DNA from: a virus
Length of the DNA: 64,000 bases
IMG/VR virus record: IMGVR_UViG_3300033182_000769
Location: 96,010-160,009 of that record
Reading direction: 5' to 3' (one strand)
Program-made: the position numbers and the translations under genes
The notes under the pieces: generated by a model
Database searches by the model: none
What the model was told of the DNA's origin: nothing
Seen by the model: the letters and a program-made list of their open reading frames with translations, nothing else
Shown here: piece after piece, positions 59,828-64,000 of the stretch
Layout of the letters: each line of letters starts with the position of its first letter
Numbering within the stretch: position 1 is the stretch's first letter

Positions 59828-60403
59828 TTAATACCGTTCAAACACACAATTAAACGATATACTTACTCGTGTATCATCACTGTCATTAGTTTGTACACCG
59901 TGATACAAGTATCCAGGAAACAGTATAATCATCCCCGGCTTGGGCACATACTCTACACGATCCGGAGGCATAACCCACCAACCGTGTGCAGCAAGATTAG
60001 GATTCTCAAAAAAGATATTTCCCGCCTTACTTCCTACACTGTGATAGTAAACCCCACTAATATCAGAGTATCCATGGTTGTGTATTTGTGCATATTCCCC
60101 ACGATCGTAGCGTGTAATCCATGACCGTCTACTGTATGTTTCTGGCATTTCAAACCCAAGATCTTGACAGTATAACGCTACAGCCGCTCGTATCTGGCTG
60201 TCAACTTTTATTAAGTTATACTCCGTTAGTGCATCTTCTTCAAATGAGTTCGTGCTTAGTTTATGTGTAGTACCCCATTCTGGCTTAATTTTCCAGTCTA
60301 TTGTAGGTAGTATACTGTCTACTTCCGCCAAGCAGGGTGCGATGTCTTCGACTTGCCCCACAAATAACGGAGTGGGGTATAAAGGGCGCATAGAATGTTT
60401 CAT
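59828..60403 (-). CDS. 2OG-Fe(II) oxygenase, TIGR02466-like
   Basis: SWIT, HNH..SDISGVYY, FPGYLYHGV, RVSISFN. Confidence 0.85.
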   Translation of the reverse strand: MKHSMRPLYPTPLFVGQVEDIAPCLAEVDSILPTIDWKIKPEWGTTHKLSTNSFEEDALTEYNLIKVDSQIRAAVALYCQDLGFEMPETYSRRSWITRYDRGEYAQIHNHGYSDISGVYYHSVGSKAGNIFFENPNLAAHGWWVMPPDRVEYVPKPGMIILFPGYLYHGVQTNDSDDTRVSISFNCVFERY

Positions 60404-60448
60404 ATGCTTACTTATTGTTATACACAGTGTAGAACACACATTTTTGGA

Positions 60449-60658
60449 TTATATACCAAGTGCGTGGTTAGTTTCGTGGTCTATACAGTGTATGCAGTGG
60501 GAGTGTTTTAAGTATAACGCAGTGTGTAGACTGTTCTCTGGATCGAGCCAAAAACGTGTACGCTGTAAGTGAACTTCGTATGTTACACAGTGAAAGCGGA
60601 GATCTTGTAGTACTTTAGCGAATTGTGGATCTGTATTGTATATGCAATAGTGAGTCAT
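60449..60658 (-). CDS. Hypothetical protein
   Basis: TAAGTA-N4-ATG; EVHLQRTRFW. Confidence 0.6.
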   Translation of the reverse strand: MTHYCIYNTDPQFAKVLQDLRFHCVTYEVHLQRTRFWLDPENSLHTALYLKHSHCIHCIDHETNHALGI

Positions 60659-60669
60659 ACAGTACTTAC

Positions 60670-60874
60670 CAAATGGGGTCTGTGTGGAAAAAAATTTGGT
60701 CGCGCAGTTTTTTCAAAATGGGTCTACAGAGAAAAAATCTTGCCGCGCAAAAAATTATATTAGTAACTTTTTCTTTTCAGGGTGGTGATTTATGACCATT
60801 AGCGCAAAAAGTAGCAGTTGTGCGTATGTATATAAAGCCCCCCAGTACCACCATAGACCCACCATAGACCCACC
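60670..60874. repeat. Non-coding junction with direct, tandem and inverted repeats
   Basis: Imperfect ~37-bp direct repeat (60670-60706 / 60714-60749); CCACCATAGAC x2.5 (60848-60874); TGGGTCTA versus TAGACCCA. Confidence 0.7.
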
Positions 60875-61177
60875 TCAACACCTTGTGGTGTGCCATGCCT
60901 TCAACTCTCGTCTTGGTAAGTGACCACCACACACCTTGTCGGCTTCGTTGGTCCAATGAGGTATCTGATCTGCAAGGTTCGCACCCGGCTCAGGATCCCA
61001 TGGTGCTTGCGTAGGGTATAACAGTTCTCGTACTGTACACATAATGCGGCCTGTGTGCTTGTCTACCCATGCATCATTACACACATACTCATAGCGAGGA
61101 GTAACATCAGCATGTGCTGTTATACTGTACACTCCGCCTGCTATAAAGCCTACTGCTATTGCTAATGCTAATCTCAT
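60875..61177 (-). CDS. Secreted hypothetical protein
   Basis: Signal peptide ending AHA-D; four Cys. Confidence 0.65.
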   Translation of the reverse strand: MRLALAIAVGFIAGGVYSITAHADVTPRYEYVCNDAWVDKHTGRIMCTVRELLYPTQAPWDPEPGANLADQIPHWTNEADKVCGGHLPRRELKAWHTTRC

Positions 61178-61374
61178 AGATCTCTCTGTGCTACTACAAT
61201 AAGAAGTGTGCCGCCCAGTAAGCCTGAAAGGCCAATACCAATAGACATTAGCATAGTAGGAATGTCATTCGCGTGTTCCATACACTTACCATCACAGTCA
61301 CCTGCTGAACCAGCCATAACCATAAAGCCAAGCATTCCTAATACTACGCCAAGTGTTGTTAAAATGTTTTTCAT
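61174..61374 (-). CDS. Two-TM small membrane protein
   Basis: Hydrophobic helices flank GDCDGKC; has RBS and promoter. Confidence 0.7.
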   Translation of the reverse strand: MKNILTTLGVVLGMLGFMVMAGSAGDCDGKCMEHANDIPTMLMSIGIGLSGLLGGTLLIVVAQRDL

Positions 61375-61399
61375 GTCGCTCTCCTAACTTGTTTAATAT

Positions 61400-61428
61400 A
61401 TTATAGGACATCCTTGTCCATTTGTCAA
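61400..61428 (-). promoter_or_regulatory. Early sigma70 promoter
   Basis: TTGACA-17-TATAAT. Confidence 0.88.
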
Positions 61429-61431
61429 CCC

Positions 61432-61806
61432 TTAATCTAAACGTGATCCTGCGTATGCTTCAAAGCCATAGCGTTTGAACACTTCAGCGGCTGCTCGTGC
61501 ACCTGCTTCCAGAGTGTCAATGTTCTGTACTGGATAGCCCGATGGGTTCCAGATCTGGAAACTTCTATCCCAGCTCTGCCCAACACCAGCGGCTTTCAGG
61601 TTCTTGCCCAGTTTGGTGTTGCCCTTCACGCCGTGTATGCTGACCCACGCAAAGCCACAAGCGTATTGATCTTGTCCGCCAAGTACATCATTGAAGTAGG
61701 TTTGGGCTGCTGCGTAGGCTGCTGTACGAGCTTGGCTTACGATATCCTTGATGTCCTCTACGGTGTAGAGTTTAGGATCTTGTTTGATTGCTGCAAATGA
61801 GTTCAT
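61432..61806 (-). CDS. Early hypothetical protein
   Basis: CGFAWV...EAGARA.A.V....G...SRLD; start after AGGAGCGAAAC. Confidence 0.75.
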   Translation of the reverse strand: MNSFAAIKQDPKLYTVEDIKDIVSQARTAAYAAAQTYFNDVLGGQDQYACGFAWVSIHGVKGNTKLGKNLKAAGVGQSWDRSFQIWNPSGYPVQNIDTLEAGARAAAEVFKRYGFEAYAGSRLD

Positions 61807-61838
61807 GTTTCGCTCCTTTTGTTTAACAGTGTCTATAT

Positions 61839-61867
61839 AGTATATGGTCAAGCCAATTCTTTGTCAA
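61839..61867 (-). promoter_or_regulatory. Early sigma70 promoter
   Basis: TTGACA-17-TATACT. Confidence 0.85.
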
Positions 61868-62027
61868 GCTCTTTTTGGACCAGTTCGTGTGCGAGATTCC
61901 ACGCCATTCCGGCTGCTGTCATAGCCATTGCTCGCTCAGGACCATTGAGCTTGCCAATCCATGTTTGGAGTGCTTCTATACTCTCTGGGGTGGCAAATAT
62001 GTTGCTTGGGGTTATTGGATTATTCAT
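61848..62027 (-). CDS. 59-aa hypothetical protein (MNNPITPSNIFATP...), absent from ORF track
   Basis: ATGA-coupled to the upstream ORF. Confidence 0.65.
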   Translation of the reverse strand: MNNPITPSNIFATPESIEALQTWIGKLNGPERAMAMTAAGMAWNLAHELVQKELDKELA

Positions 62028-62131
62028 TTGCCCATCTCCTCAAAACGCTTGCGGGCTTCGTACATCTGCCCGAACATGAATCCCATGAAGCCTGTGTAGG
62101 CGATGAGTGCGAAGTTTAGAATGATATCCAT
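62024..62131 (-). CDS. 35-aa membrane peptide
   Basis: AAGGAG RBS; MDIILNFALIAYTGFMGFMFG. Confidence 0.6.
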   Translation of the reverse strand: MDIILNFALIAYTGFMGFMFGQMYEARKRFEEMGK

Positions 62132-62141
62132 GTGTTTCTCC

Positions 62142-62264
62142 TTATAGAATGACTGGAAATGTTGCGAGCATCGCAATGAATGTTGCCAGGGTGAGCAAGG
62201 CCATTTGGGCGATACCTGTTGCGAATAGGAAGCCAATGCCTGCGATCCAAAGTAGTGTTTTCAT
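62142..62264 (-). CDS. 40-aa hydrophobic peptide (MKTLLWIAGIGFLFATG...), absent from ORF track
   Basis: GGAGCGAAC RBS and promoter directly upstream. Confidence 0.65.
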   Translation of the reverse strand: MKTLLWIAGIGFLFATGIAQMALLTLATFIAMLATFPVIL

Positions 62265-62294
62265 CGTTCGCTCCGTTTGTTTAACTATATCTAT

Positions 62295-62323
62295 ATTATA
62301 GGGTCACTTTGGGTTGATGTCAA
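62295..62323 (-). promoter_or_regulatory. Early sigma70 promoter
   Basis: TTGACA-17-TATAAT. Confidence 0.88.
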
Positions 62324-62326
62324 CCC

Positions 62327-62476
62327 CTAAAAGAGGATATATGCAAGAAATCCCAAACCCAAAATCCAGGCCCAATACTGCCATCCTGCTCGGATACTTG
62401 CTGTGATCACTGTTACCGTTAGGGCTATTACAAAGCCACCAGCCAGTGCTCCAAGCAATACTTCGAACTCGTTCAT
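62327..62476 (-). CDS. 49-aa two-TM peptide (MNEFEVLLGALAGG...), absent from ORF track
   Basis: GGAGG RBS; TAATG coupling. Confidence 0.65.
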   Translation of the reverse strand: MNEFEVLLGALAGGFVIALTVTVITASIRAGWQYWAWILGLGFLAYILF

Positions 62477-62805
62477 TACACTGCCTCCAATTTGGTTACG
62501 AACTCATCGTGCGGATTAACCCGCTTGACGTGCTCCATCTTGAATGCGCGATACTCTGCATCGTCATCTTCCAGCCACTCTTCAACGGTCATTACCGCTG
62601 ATGGAAACTCCTTCCAACCGATACCGTTCTCCATGCCGATCGCGGCAACGAACGCCATAGCATCTTGTGGGCGGTCCAAGCCCTCGACCATATAGTCCGT
62701 ACCGAACTTGAACTTCCAGTAAGCCTCGCCGTCCTTGAACTTGCCAGTGCCTGCGTGGGCGCCGTAGTTTTCCAATGCTTGAGTTGTTACGATGAAAGTT
62801 GACAT
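62476..62805 (-). CDS. Early hypothetical protein
   Basis: TQ.LENYGAH...YWKFK.G..Y; has RBS and promoter. Confidence 0.75.
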   Translation of the reverse strand: MSTFIVTTQALENYGAHAGTGKFKDGEAYWKFKFGTDYMVEGLDRPQDAMAFVAAIGMENGIGWKEFPSAVMTVEEWLEDDDAEYRAFKMEHVKRVNPHDEFVTKLEAV

Positions 62806-62836
62806 AGTTCGCTCCTATTTCCTAACTGTTATATAC

Positions 62837-62865
62837 ATTATACCATCGGTTGTCCAATCTGTCAA
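62837..62865 (-). promoter_or_regulatory. Early sigma70 promoter
   Basis: TTGACA-17-TATAAT. Confidence 0.88.
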
Positions 62866-63476
62866 CCATTTTCTGTAATAAATTCCGGATTGTGAATGTA
62901 GGCAGTGTGCTTCTTCTTTTCGTATGTGAGAACCAGTTGTTTGGTTACATCAGCGCCATTGTGGACGTGGCCTTTCTTGTAGGTGTCCTCTGGCTTTACC
63001 TGTACAGGATATTCGCCGATCCACCCGTCGATGCCCTGTGACTCCTCTTCTGCTGTTGAGAAGCGATATGGCATTTTGAAATACTCTGCGGCCGCTTGAA
63101 TCGCAGCACTCTCACCGCCCATACCAAAGTGAGTTTTGTTGAAGATCACTTCTTCAACATAGTCACGGCATAGTTCAGGAGTGATCCAAGAGATGCCCAT
63201 GTCATCGTGTGCCTTTGAGTAGAGTTTGTCTGCGGCCCACTGAAGATTCTCTTCACCAATACGTGGGCGTTGAAATGCCTCCCAATTCTCAAGAGTATCA
63301 GGAACACCAGTTGCTACAAACTCAAGCCAGGATTCCTTCATGCTACCAACCTTCTTTGCTGTGAAGCACTGAGCGTTCTGCCCCGCGATGTTCAACAATT
63401 GGGTTGCGTATCGTGGCCACTCACGACGGCTTCGTGTGTCGTTGGCCTTGTAGAATTTTGCTGTTAGTTTGATCAT
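62862..63476 (-). CDS. MjaI-family PD-(D/E)xK restriction endonuclease
   Basis: P.YATQLLNIA.QNAQ......VG.M, KT..G...E, EEESQGIDG.IG..PVQVKP..Y match my recollection of the RE_MjaI family. Confidence 0.75.
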   Translation of the reverse strand: MIKLTAKFYKANDTRSRREWPRYATQLLNIAGQNAQCFTAKKVGSMKESWLEFVATGVPDTLENWEAFQRPRIGEENLQWAADKLYSKAHDDMGISWITPELCRDYVEEVIFNKTHFGMGGESAAIQAAAEYFKMPYRFSTAEEESQGIDGWIGEYPVQVKPEDTYKKGHVHNGADVTKQLVLTYEKKKHTAYIHNPEFITENG

Positions 63477-63507
63477 TTGGTGCTCCCGTCAATCTCTTAT
63501 TATGTCT

Positions 63508-63536
63508 ATTATAAGATCGTTTGGACGAAATGTCAA
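63508..63536 (-). promoter_or_regulatory. Early sigma70 promoter for the endonuclease
   Basis: TTGACA-17-TATAAT; GGGAG RBS. Confidence 0.88.
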
Positions 63537-63539
63537 CCA

Positions 63540-63746
63540 TTATTGGAGGGTGACTACACCCGGAACCGTCTGCTTACTTGCAGCGATATGGTCAAACAGC
63601 AGGTCCTGCGCCGCCTCAATCTCCTCCAGCGTCATCCAATCTGCATCGTCCATAATGCCCTGCACGATGTTGCCCATCTCATCATCGCTACGCTCGAAGC
63701 GTAGCGGATGGATCATAAGTTCCGGATCAACATAGGTAATGCTCAT
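63540..63746 (-). CDS. Hypothetical acidic protein
   Basis: GAGGTG RBS before MSITYVDPE. Confidence 0.65.
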   Translation of the reverse strand: MSITYVDPELMIHPLRFERSDDEMGNIVQGIMDDADWMTLEEIEAAQDLLFDHIAASKQTVPGVVTLQ

Positions 63747-63747
63747 A

Positions 63748-63999
63748 TCACACCTCGTAGCCCGCAGCACGCAGGCGAGCAAGTTCATCTTCAACTACTG
63801 GACCGAGCAAGTCAAAAATCGGAAAGTTGTTTTCGTCATAGTTGCCCGCACGCCAAACCAGCCACTCCTTGCCGTTCCACAAGTAAGCATAGTCGCTCCA
63901 GCTGTAATGATCAAGCCATTCCTGGATAGTTGCAAACTCCTTGCAATCAACATCCTTCTCGCCGCGATCACGTCCGTAGAACACAGTCATGTTGCCGTA
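63748..63999 (-). CDS. Hypothetical protein (5'-truncated by window)
   Basis: Frame open to the edge; FYGRDRGE...DYAYLWNGKEW. Confidence 0.65.
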   Translation of the reverse strand, partial: YGNMTVFYGRDRGEKDVDCKEFATIQEWLDHYSWSDYAYLWNGKEWLVWRAGNYDENNFPIFDLLGPVVEDELARLRAAGYEV

Positions 64000-64000
64000 A

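Follow-up and report, generated by a model that had tools for sequence, protein, structure and literature searches.

An MjaI-family restriction endonuclease gene without a partner methylase in the CTAG-free sequence of an uncultured giant T4-like phage

The IMG/VR record IMGVR_UViG_3300033182_000769 comprises 160,009 bp, of which the final 64 kb (positions 96,010–160,009) were analysed here; this stretch of 64,000 bases is designated the window, and coordinates refer to it unless a contig is named. Its source is an uncultured giant T4-like phage, and the window encodes tail sheath and baseplate proteins, the large terminase, DnaB and other helicases, and a tryptophan halogenase. The closest isolates are the giant phages Pseudomonas PA5oct, Sinorhizobium Phosso, and Agrobacterium Atu_ph07, with a terminase identity of about 50 %, and metagenomic relatives are plentiful at 79–83 % terminase identity, one of them being a 353-kb genome with a completeness of 98 % (G005). 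The completeness of the record itself was determined as 45 % by CheckV, and the full genome of the phage should have a size of roughly 350 kb. Neither tRNA genes within the window nor a match of positions 60000–64000 to the phage collection by megablast were found, and psbA, which was sought as a test for cyanophages, is absent from the record and from four relatives. The GC content of the window is 38.4 %, close to the 37 % that had been estimated in an earlier note on this DNA, made from the letters alone. A 203-aa 2OG-Fe(II) oxygenase (PF13759) is encoded at 59828–60439 on the minus strand, and several paralogues of it occur in the record and in relatives.

The feature of interest is a gene on the minus strand (62862–63476) which codes for a 204-aa restriction endonuclease of the MjaI family (PF09568) and has no partner methylase. 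Its ATG is preceded by a Shine-Dalgarno sequence, GGGAG, located 6 nt upstream (63483–63487, minus strand) and by a sigma-70-type promoter, TTGACA-N17-TATAAT, at 63508–63536 on the same strand, the first hexamer lying 60 nt before the ATG. This promoter, which had already been noticed in the earlier note, agrees with the consensus at 12 of 12 positions. Three further perfect copies of the motif are located on the minus strand before small open reading frames (61428–61400, 62323–62295, and 62865–62837), and in the complete 160-kb record eight such promoters are present, all with a spacer of 17 nt, where by our estimate about 0.1 would be expected by chance. Half of the eight thus fall within 2.2 kb of the minus strand (61400–63536), and the small open reading frames behind them have no family match. 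Since perfect sigma-70-type promoters are clustered here and a late-type TAAATA box is missing upstream of the nuclease gene, the setting has an early-type appearance, and the four promoters together with the small minus-strand reading frames resemble a cluster of early genes as in T4-like phages. Promoters matching in 10–12 of 12 positions are also found at −46 to −93 in the homologue loci L015, L013, L277, L278, L274, and L002–L006. A search for sequencing runs that contain positions 60500–64000 listed none, RNA data included.

The open reading frames flanking the nuclease gene have no Pfam match, the small-gene block around it is not syntenic with that of relatives, and no neighbour gene is conserved across the loci in which the nuclease gene stands alone; the sole recurrent neighbour is a methylase gene, in the paired loci described below. 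Two local arrangements in other phages may be mentioned. On an NCBI metagenome contig (L278, 1766–5580), a lone MjaI-family gene is followed by a gene for a 721-aa protein and by a gene with a Phage_T4_rIIB domain, an arrangement resembling a T4-style early region. In the branch of the cultured Synechococcus phage S-SM2, a reading frame of 379–395 aa follows the nuclease gene, which is gp066 in S-SM2 (L188, 4621–5760, which is SSM2_067; L026, 2181–3368), and SSM2_067 has no Pfam match.

The assignment of the 204-aa protein to the MjaI family, proposed in the earlier note, was confirmed by a match to the Pfam model RE_MjaI (PF09568) with an E value of 2.1e-27 and a score of 96.4 bits (cut-off 22.7), covering positions 1–161 of the 164 positions of the model. 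An alignment of 23 homologues (45–75 % identity) contains 37 invariant columns, including E144, E145, D150, Q159, and K161. The corresponding block, EE...GID...(Q/S)xK, is common to members from cyanophages and to members linked to restriction-modification (R-M) systems, with QxK being replaced by SxK in the cyanophage branch, and 29 of the 30 viral loci have retained it, the exception being a truncated copy in L022. The acidic and lysine residues of this block are presumably catalytic. The truncated copy (L022, 4330–4830) encodes 166 aa without the xK of the motif on an 11-kb contig with 0 CTAG sites of 15 expected, and may be a recently decayed gene. Cellular homologues recovered in the alignment scan show at most 41 % identity and stem from Zixibacteria, Ignavibacteria, and unclassified MAGs, which points to no particular host. 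Compared to the known CTAG-specific enzymes of the MjaI type, the phage protein is extended at the N-terminus by about 20 residues, and the form of about 200 aa was met only in viral and metagenome DNA.

A PD-(D/E)xK fold, which the earlier note had ascribed to this reading frame, is plausible but weakly supported. The AF2 model of the protein (pLDDT 82.5) gave no match in the PDB at an E value of 0.001 or better with Foldseek, and a profile search of solved structures with the nuclease yielded chance-level matches alone. In an exhaustive structural comparison with VIA-align, the C-terminal domain (residues 111–204) resembled PD-(D/E)xK nucleases with Z scores of 4.5–6.4; the top match was I-Ssp6803I (Z 6.4, rmsd 3.2, 90 aligned residues), followed by modest matches to Hjc, HhaI, VRR-NUC, and Vsr with Z scores of 4–5. 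A homodimer prediction reached a score of 0.36 against a mark of 0.42 and gave no verdict.

The archaeal namesake MjaI recognises CTAG, and its partner methylase M.MjaI generates m4C (PMC11033074). In the earlier note, CTAG had never been seen when the window was inspected by eye, and the computed count is indeed 0 in 64,000 bases, compared to 168 ± 12 expected from dinucleotide shuffles, 130 from a second-order Markov model, and 224 from base composition. The CTAG-free DNA, which would constitute the self-immunity half of the system, extends from position 1 to 64000 of the window and across the whole 160,009-bp record, with 0 sites versus 326 expected. Because the trinucleotides CTA and TAG are plentiful in the window (about 830 each), the gap is specific to the CTAG tetramer. 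The four 6-mers containing CTAG are all absent and every CTAG context is purged, which argues for a 4-mer as target and not for particular 6-mers; a 6-bp recognition site containing CTAG was rejected on these grounds. A homing endonuclease was set aside, since the target would be a 4-bp word purged genome-wide as opposed to one long site, and since the gene is situated within the non-syntenic small-gene block, outside any conserved gene. Other words are low in the record, none of them being absent (observed/expected: AGCT, 90/448; CGCG, 45/169; CATG, 291/533), and the hexamers AAGCTT and ACATGT were counted 0 times versus about 53 expected from base composition. How the CTAG sites may have disappeared can be read from a comparison with G005, in which 281 CTAG places lie in aligned orthologous reading frames: the window's phage has TTAG (51), CTTG (41), CAAG (19), or other words instead, and at 124 of these 281 places both codons keep their amino acids.

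The absence of a methyltransferase from the window, as reported in the earlier note, holds for the whole 160-kb record with respect to four methylase families, i.e., PF01555 (N6_N4), PF00145 (C5), PF02086 (D12), and PF02384 (N6_Mtase), and no remnant of the methylase of a related R-M pair (that of G042) was found in the record either. A cognate methylase gene adjacent to the nuclease gene, as would be expected in a Type II R-M system, is not present at the window's locus. As the record corresponds to about 45 % of the genome according to CheckV and relatives reach 353 kb, the absence of a methylase has been established for under half of the genome of this phage. The same four families are also missing from S-SM2, whose sequence is 97 % complete.

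For comparison, 160 loci of relatives were used as a control set, 80 of them anchored at the terminase and 80 at DnaB, with terminase or DnaB proteins of 73–91 % identity. The profile search by which these relatives were found to lack an MjaI gene recovers the gene of the window, serving as positive control. CTAG occurs at expectation in 155 of the 160 loci, and all loci pooled contain 9673 sites compared to 8901 expected. Among the terminase-anchored loci, the ratio is near 1.0 in 78, and two fragments contain no CTAG (L056, 5 kb; L071, 27 kb). Among the DnaB-anchored loci, three lack CTAG: L198 belongs to a record (G041) that carries the MjaI gene elsewhere, and L200 and L273 are fragments of 29 and 5 kb. 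The sequence of the four CTAG-free fragments (5–29 kb, 1–8 % complete) contains no MjaI gene. Two long gene-free records have normal CTAG counts, with 1411 sites versus 1315 expected in the 353-kb, 98 % complete G005, and 667 versus 661 in the 188-kb G003. CTAG absence thus tracks the gene and not the clade. Some relatives with normal CTAG counts are largely or completely purged of CATG instead (L065, 0 of 54 expected; L044, 0 of 30; L035–L040, about 4–7 of 32–61).

With a profile built from the 23 homologues, 30 viral loci were retrieved and subdivided by a search of their records for a PF01555 methylase. The 22 loci with a lone MjaI-family gene contain 4 CTAG sites versus 626 expected. CTAG was counted 0 times versus 299 expected in cultured S-SM2 (190,789 bp), which has a lone gene, and whole metagenomic records with a lone gene gave the same picture (G044, 0/304; G043, 0/197; G041, 0/166; G039, 0/145; G029, 0/131; G032, 0/112; G030, 0/90). 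Additional metagenome contigs with a lone gene showed 0/33, 0/33, 0/32, 0/15, 4/35, and 3/35; as a few lone-gene contigs (L026, L028, L274, and L277) retain 2–4 sites, zero CTAG is not obligatory. Where the gene adjoins a PF01555 methylase gene, CTAG is retained at lowered frequency (G042, 76/122; G058, 70/177; L017, 7/19; L018, 3/17), and the cultured cyanophage S-H9-2 (NC_070960.1), which possesses an overlapping operon of both genes, has 61 of 467 sites. Three GC-rich proviruses and G051 carry the pair yet no CTAG, with 11–21 sites expected. Wherever such a pair was found, the methylase gene lies beside the nuclease gene or within about 1 kb of it. The ratio of observed to expected CTAG is consequently about 1 without the gene, 0.13–0.62 with nuclease and methylase, and 0, rarely up to about 0.15, with the nuclease alone.

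CTAG absence is thus tightly associated with the lone gene across phages, and both coincide in unrelated phage backgrounds with GC contents from 36 % to 44 %. All nine long CTAG-free records examined, including that of the window, carry the gene; they represent about eight distinct ones, as G043 and G044 seem to derive from one and the same phage. Of 17 records without the gene that measure at least 43 kb (about 12 distinct), not one is free of CTAG. Fisher's exact test on 8 versus 12 distinct records gives p ~8e-6 by our own arithmetic, a value which ignores shared ancestry. In a quick terminase tree, the CTAG-free phages form three scattered lineages with three label changes, of which well-supported branches force at least two, and therefore the CTAG-free state was gained or lost repeatedly, although mosaicism may obscure the picture. 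CTAG-rich and CTAG-free relatives were found in common samples, for example G041 together with L053, L055, and L065 in 3300017917, and G044 together with L076 in 3300027969.

Further word deficits were observed in some of the phages with the gene. In S-H9-2, whose R-M operon of MjaI type is located between two annotated psbA (D1) genes, CCGG (0/95) and GGCC (11/100) are also low. AGCT is low in G030 (7/93), G032 (4/109), and L274–L276 (0/33, 0/31, and 0/28), which carry lone MjaI-family genes with proteins of 53–55 % identity, and no second nuclease was identified in their gene tables.

Taken together, we consider it probable that the gene product is an active Type IIP-like nuclease of the MjaI family with specificity for CTAG, which is expressed from an early-style promoter with no accompanying methyltransferase, and that the phage is immune because the site is absent from its DNA. 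Self-protection by site loss is the well-supported part of this model; cleavage activity and CTAG specificity of the window's protein are what we infer from its family and from the missing word. The nuclease would be made early from its own sigma-70-type promoter, and the phage genome, having no CTAG, would offer no substrate. Its sites would have disappeared mainly through substitutions of one base, many of them synonymous. Since the phage genome lacks the word, all DNA with CTAG sites that is present during infection, from the host chromosome as well as from co-infecting phages, would be a substrate and could be cut; a host which methylates CTAG would have its DNA protected. The occurrence of CTAG-rich and CTAG-free relatives in the same samples makes the exclusion of rival phages ecologically possible. 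The graded CTAG loss in phages with both genes suggests a route in which a phage-borne R-M pair was followed by selection against CTAG despite the methylase, then by a state with zero sites, and finally by loss of the methylase gene. The earlier note had described the protein as a methylase-free weapon acting early on host or co-infecting phage DNA, with self-protection by site loss; the last element is well supported by the counts, early expression is a reading of the promoter type, and the DNA of the host and that of co-infecting phages are both candidate targets. More tentatively, the combination of a lone nuclease and total site loss may be a weapon that recurs, without a methylase, among T4-like and giant phages of aquatic habitats, acquired via such a ratchet and directed mainly at the DNA of CTAG-rich rivals, but also at that of the host; this broader reading is possible, though we would not bet on it. 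If it is true, clean purges of CATG, AGCT, and CCGG in relatives could mark further phage nucleases of the same kind.

Alternatively, the order of events could have been the reverse, CTAG having been purged first as an escape from host restriction and the nuclease being a later passenger, either selfish or of little benefit to its carrier, which a genome already free of CTAG could simply tolerate. Site avoidance is indeed widespread in phages (PMC6286503), AGCT, CGCG, and CATG are also low in the record with no matching nuclease identified, relatives such as L065 and L044 have been cleared of CATG, and the four CTAG-free fragments have no MjaI gene in their sequenced part. We nevertheless regard host-driven avoidance as unlikely, because all of the about eight distinct long CTAG-free records carry the gene and none of the about 12 distinct gene-free ones is CTAG-free, and because the purge of CTAG is absolute and that of the other words partial. 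In addition, the strong conservation of the protein and its own strong promoter indicate that the gene is not decaying. Even if the CTAG-free state originated from host restriction, the mechanism operating today could be that of the preferred model.

A conventional R-M system would require that a cognate CTAG methylase is encoded in the remaining 55 % or so of the genome and that the phage DNA is methylated as well. The 45 % completeness of the record leaves room for such a gene, some phages do carry the pair, and separated nuclease and methylase genes are known in prokaryotes (PMC3488263). This arrangement appears very improbable to us nonetheless, as the methylase gene was close to the nuclease gene in all paired cases, as the 97 % complete S-SM2 combines a lone gene with zero CTAG and no methylase of the four families, and as phages having the methylase keep CTAG; in a genome without CTAG sites, moreover, a methylase would have nothing to protect. 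Similarly, there is hardly any likelihood that the protein has ceased to cut at CTAG, being inactive, respecified, or a DNA-binding or repair factor, with the absence of CTAG unrelated to it. The lack of a solved relative in the Foldseek search and the weak structural matches (Z at most 6.4) would be in line with this possibility, but the gene and the CTAG-free state occur together across unrelated backgrounds (GC 36–44 %), the CTAG content differs with the presence of a methylase, and the acidic/lysine motif is invariant.

Under the preferred model of a CTAG-specific nuclease with immunity by site absence, the gene would stand for a virus-borne Type II nuclease whose carrier is protected by loss of the site instead of methylation. 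Restriction enzymes are taught as host defences which are necessarily paired with a methylase; these phages hold the nuclease alone, and the target word has been deleted from genomes up to the 190,789 bp of S-SM2 and from all 160 kb of the window's record. A rule that can be read from sequence follows, as a lone nuclease gene together with a missing word may provide specificities for uncharacterised nucleases, and the same rule could recast some cases of phage 'restriction avoidance' as self-inflicted. The system would represent a possible mechanism of host shut-off or of phage-versus-phage exclusion in abundant aquatic phages, and cyanophage S-SM2 on Synechococcus WH8017 is a cultured system suited to the question. 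The three states, i.e., no gene, nuclease plus methylase, and lone nuclease, furnish a worked example of a toxin losing its antidote gene. Our literature search, the coverage of which was incomplete, yielded no account of a lone nuclease encoded by a phage whose genome is free of the site.

Several known systems share single features with the one described here. CTAG-specific Type II R-M systems include MjaI/M.MjaI of Methanocaldococcus jannaschii, MthZI, and MaeI. The phage protein belongs to the same Pfam family as MjaI, probably shares its target, and in the phages with both genes is paired with an N4/N6 methylase of family PF01555, as in MjaI systems; unlike MjaI, the window's gene has no methylase, resides in a giant phage of lytic type, is preceded by an early-style promoter, and would depend on site absence for protection. 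Solitary restriction endonuclease genes of prokaryotes (Ershova et al. 2012, PMC3488263) likewise comprise Type II nucleases without adjacent methylase; in the passages considered, that survey explains them by methylases encoded at a distance, by fragmentary genes, by inactive enzymes, or by chromosomes that are protected, and the terms 'avoid' and 'CTAG' do not occur there, 'phage' occurring in other contexts alone. The avoidance of palindromes by phages is classically read as escape from host R-M enzymes (Rusinov et al. 2018, PMC6286503). The window's phage resembles such cases in that a short palindrome has been purged genome-wide, partly via synonymous changes, and differs from them in that the phage itself encodes a nuclease matching the purged word and that the purge tracks the gene among relatives.

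Virus-encoded Type II-like nucleases with short recognition sites (2–4 bp) are also known from chloroviruses, such as R.CviAII and R.CviJI of PBCV-1-like viruses. The chlorovirus enzymes are packaged in the virions and are believed to break down the DNA of the host in the first minutes after infection, thereby contributing to host shut-off, and the degraded DNA feeds nucleotide salvage; their genes are always adjacent to a methylase gene, and the viral DNA is methylated (PMC7019647). In contrast, such a pairing is not found in the window's phage, in whose sequenced record no methylase of the four families was detected and from which the sites themselves are gone. A functional parallel is offered by endonucleases II and IV of phage T4 (denA and denB), early nucleases which destroy the DNA of the host and spare that of the phage (PMC2764454). 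The nuclease families are unrelated, and the basis of the exemption differs: T4 relies on hydroxymethylcytosine, whereas the window's phage would rely on the missing word.
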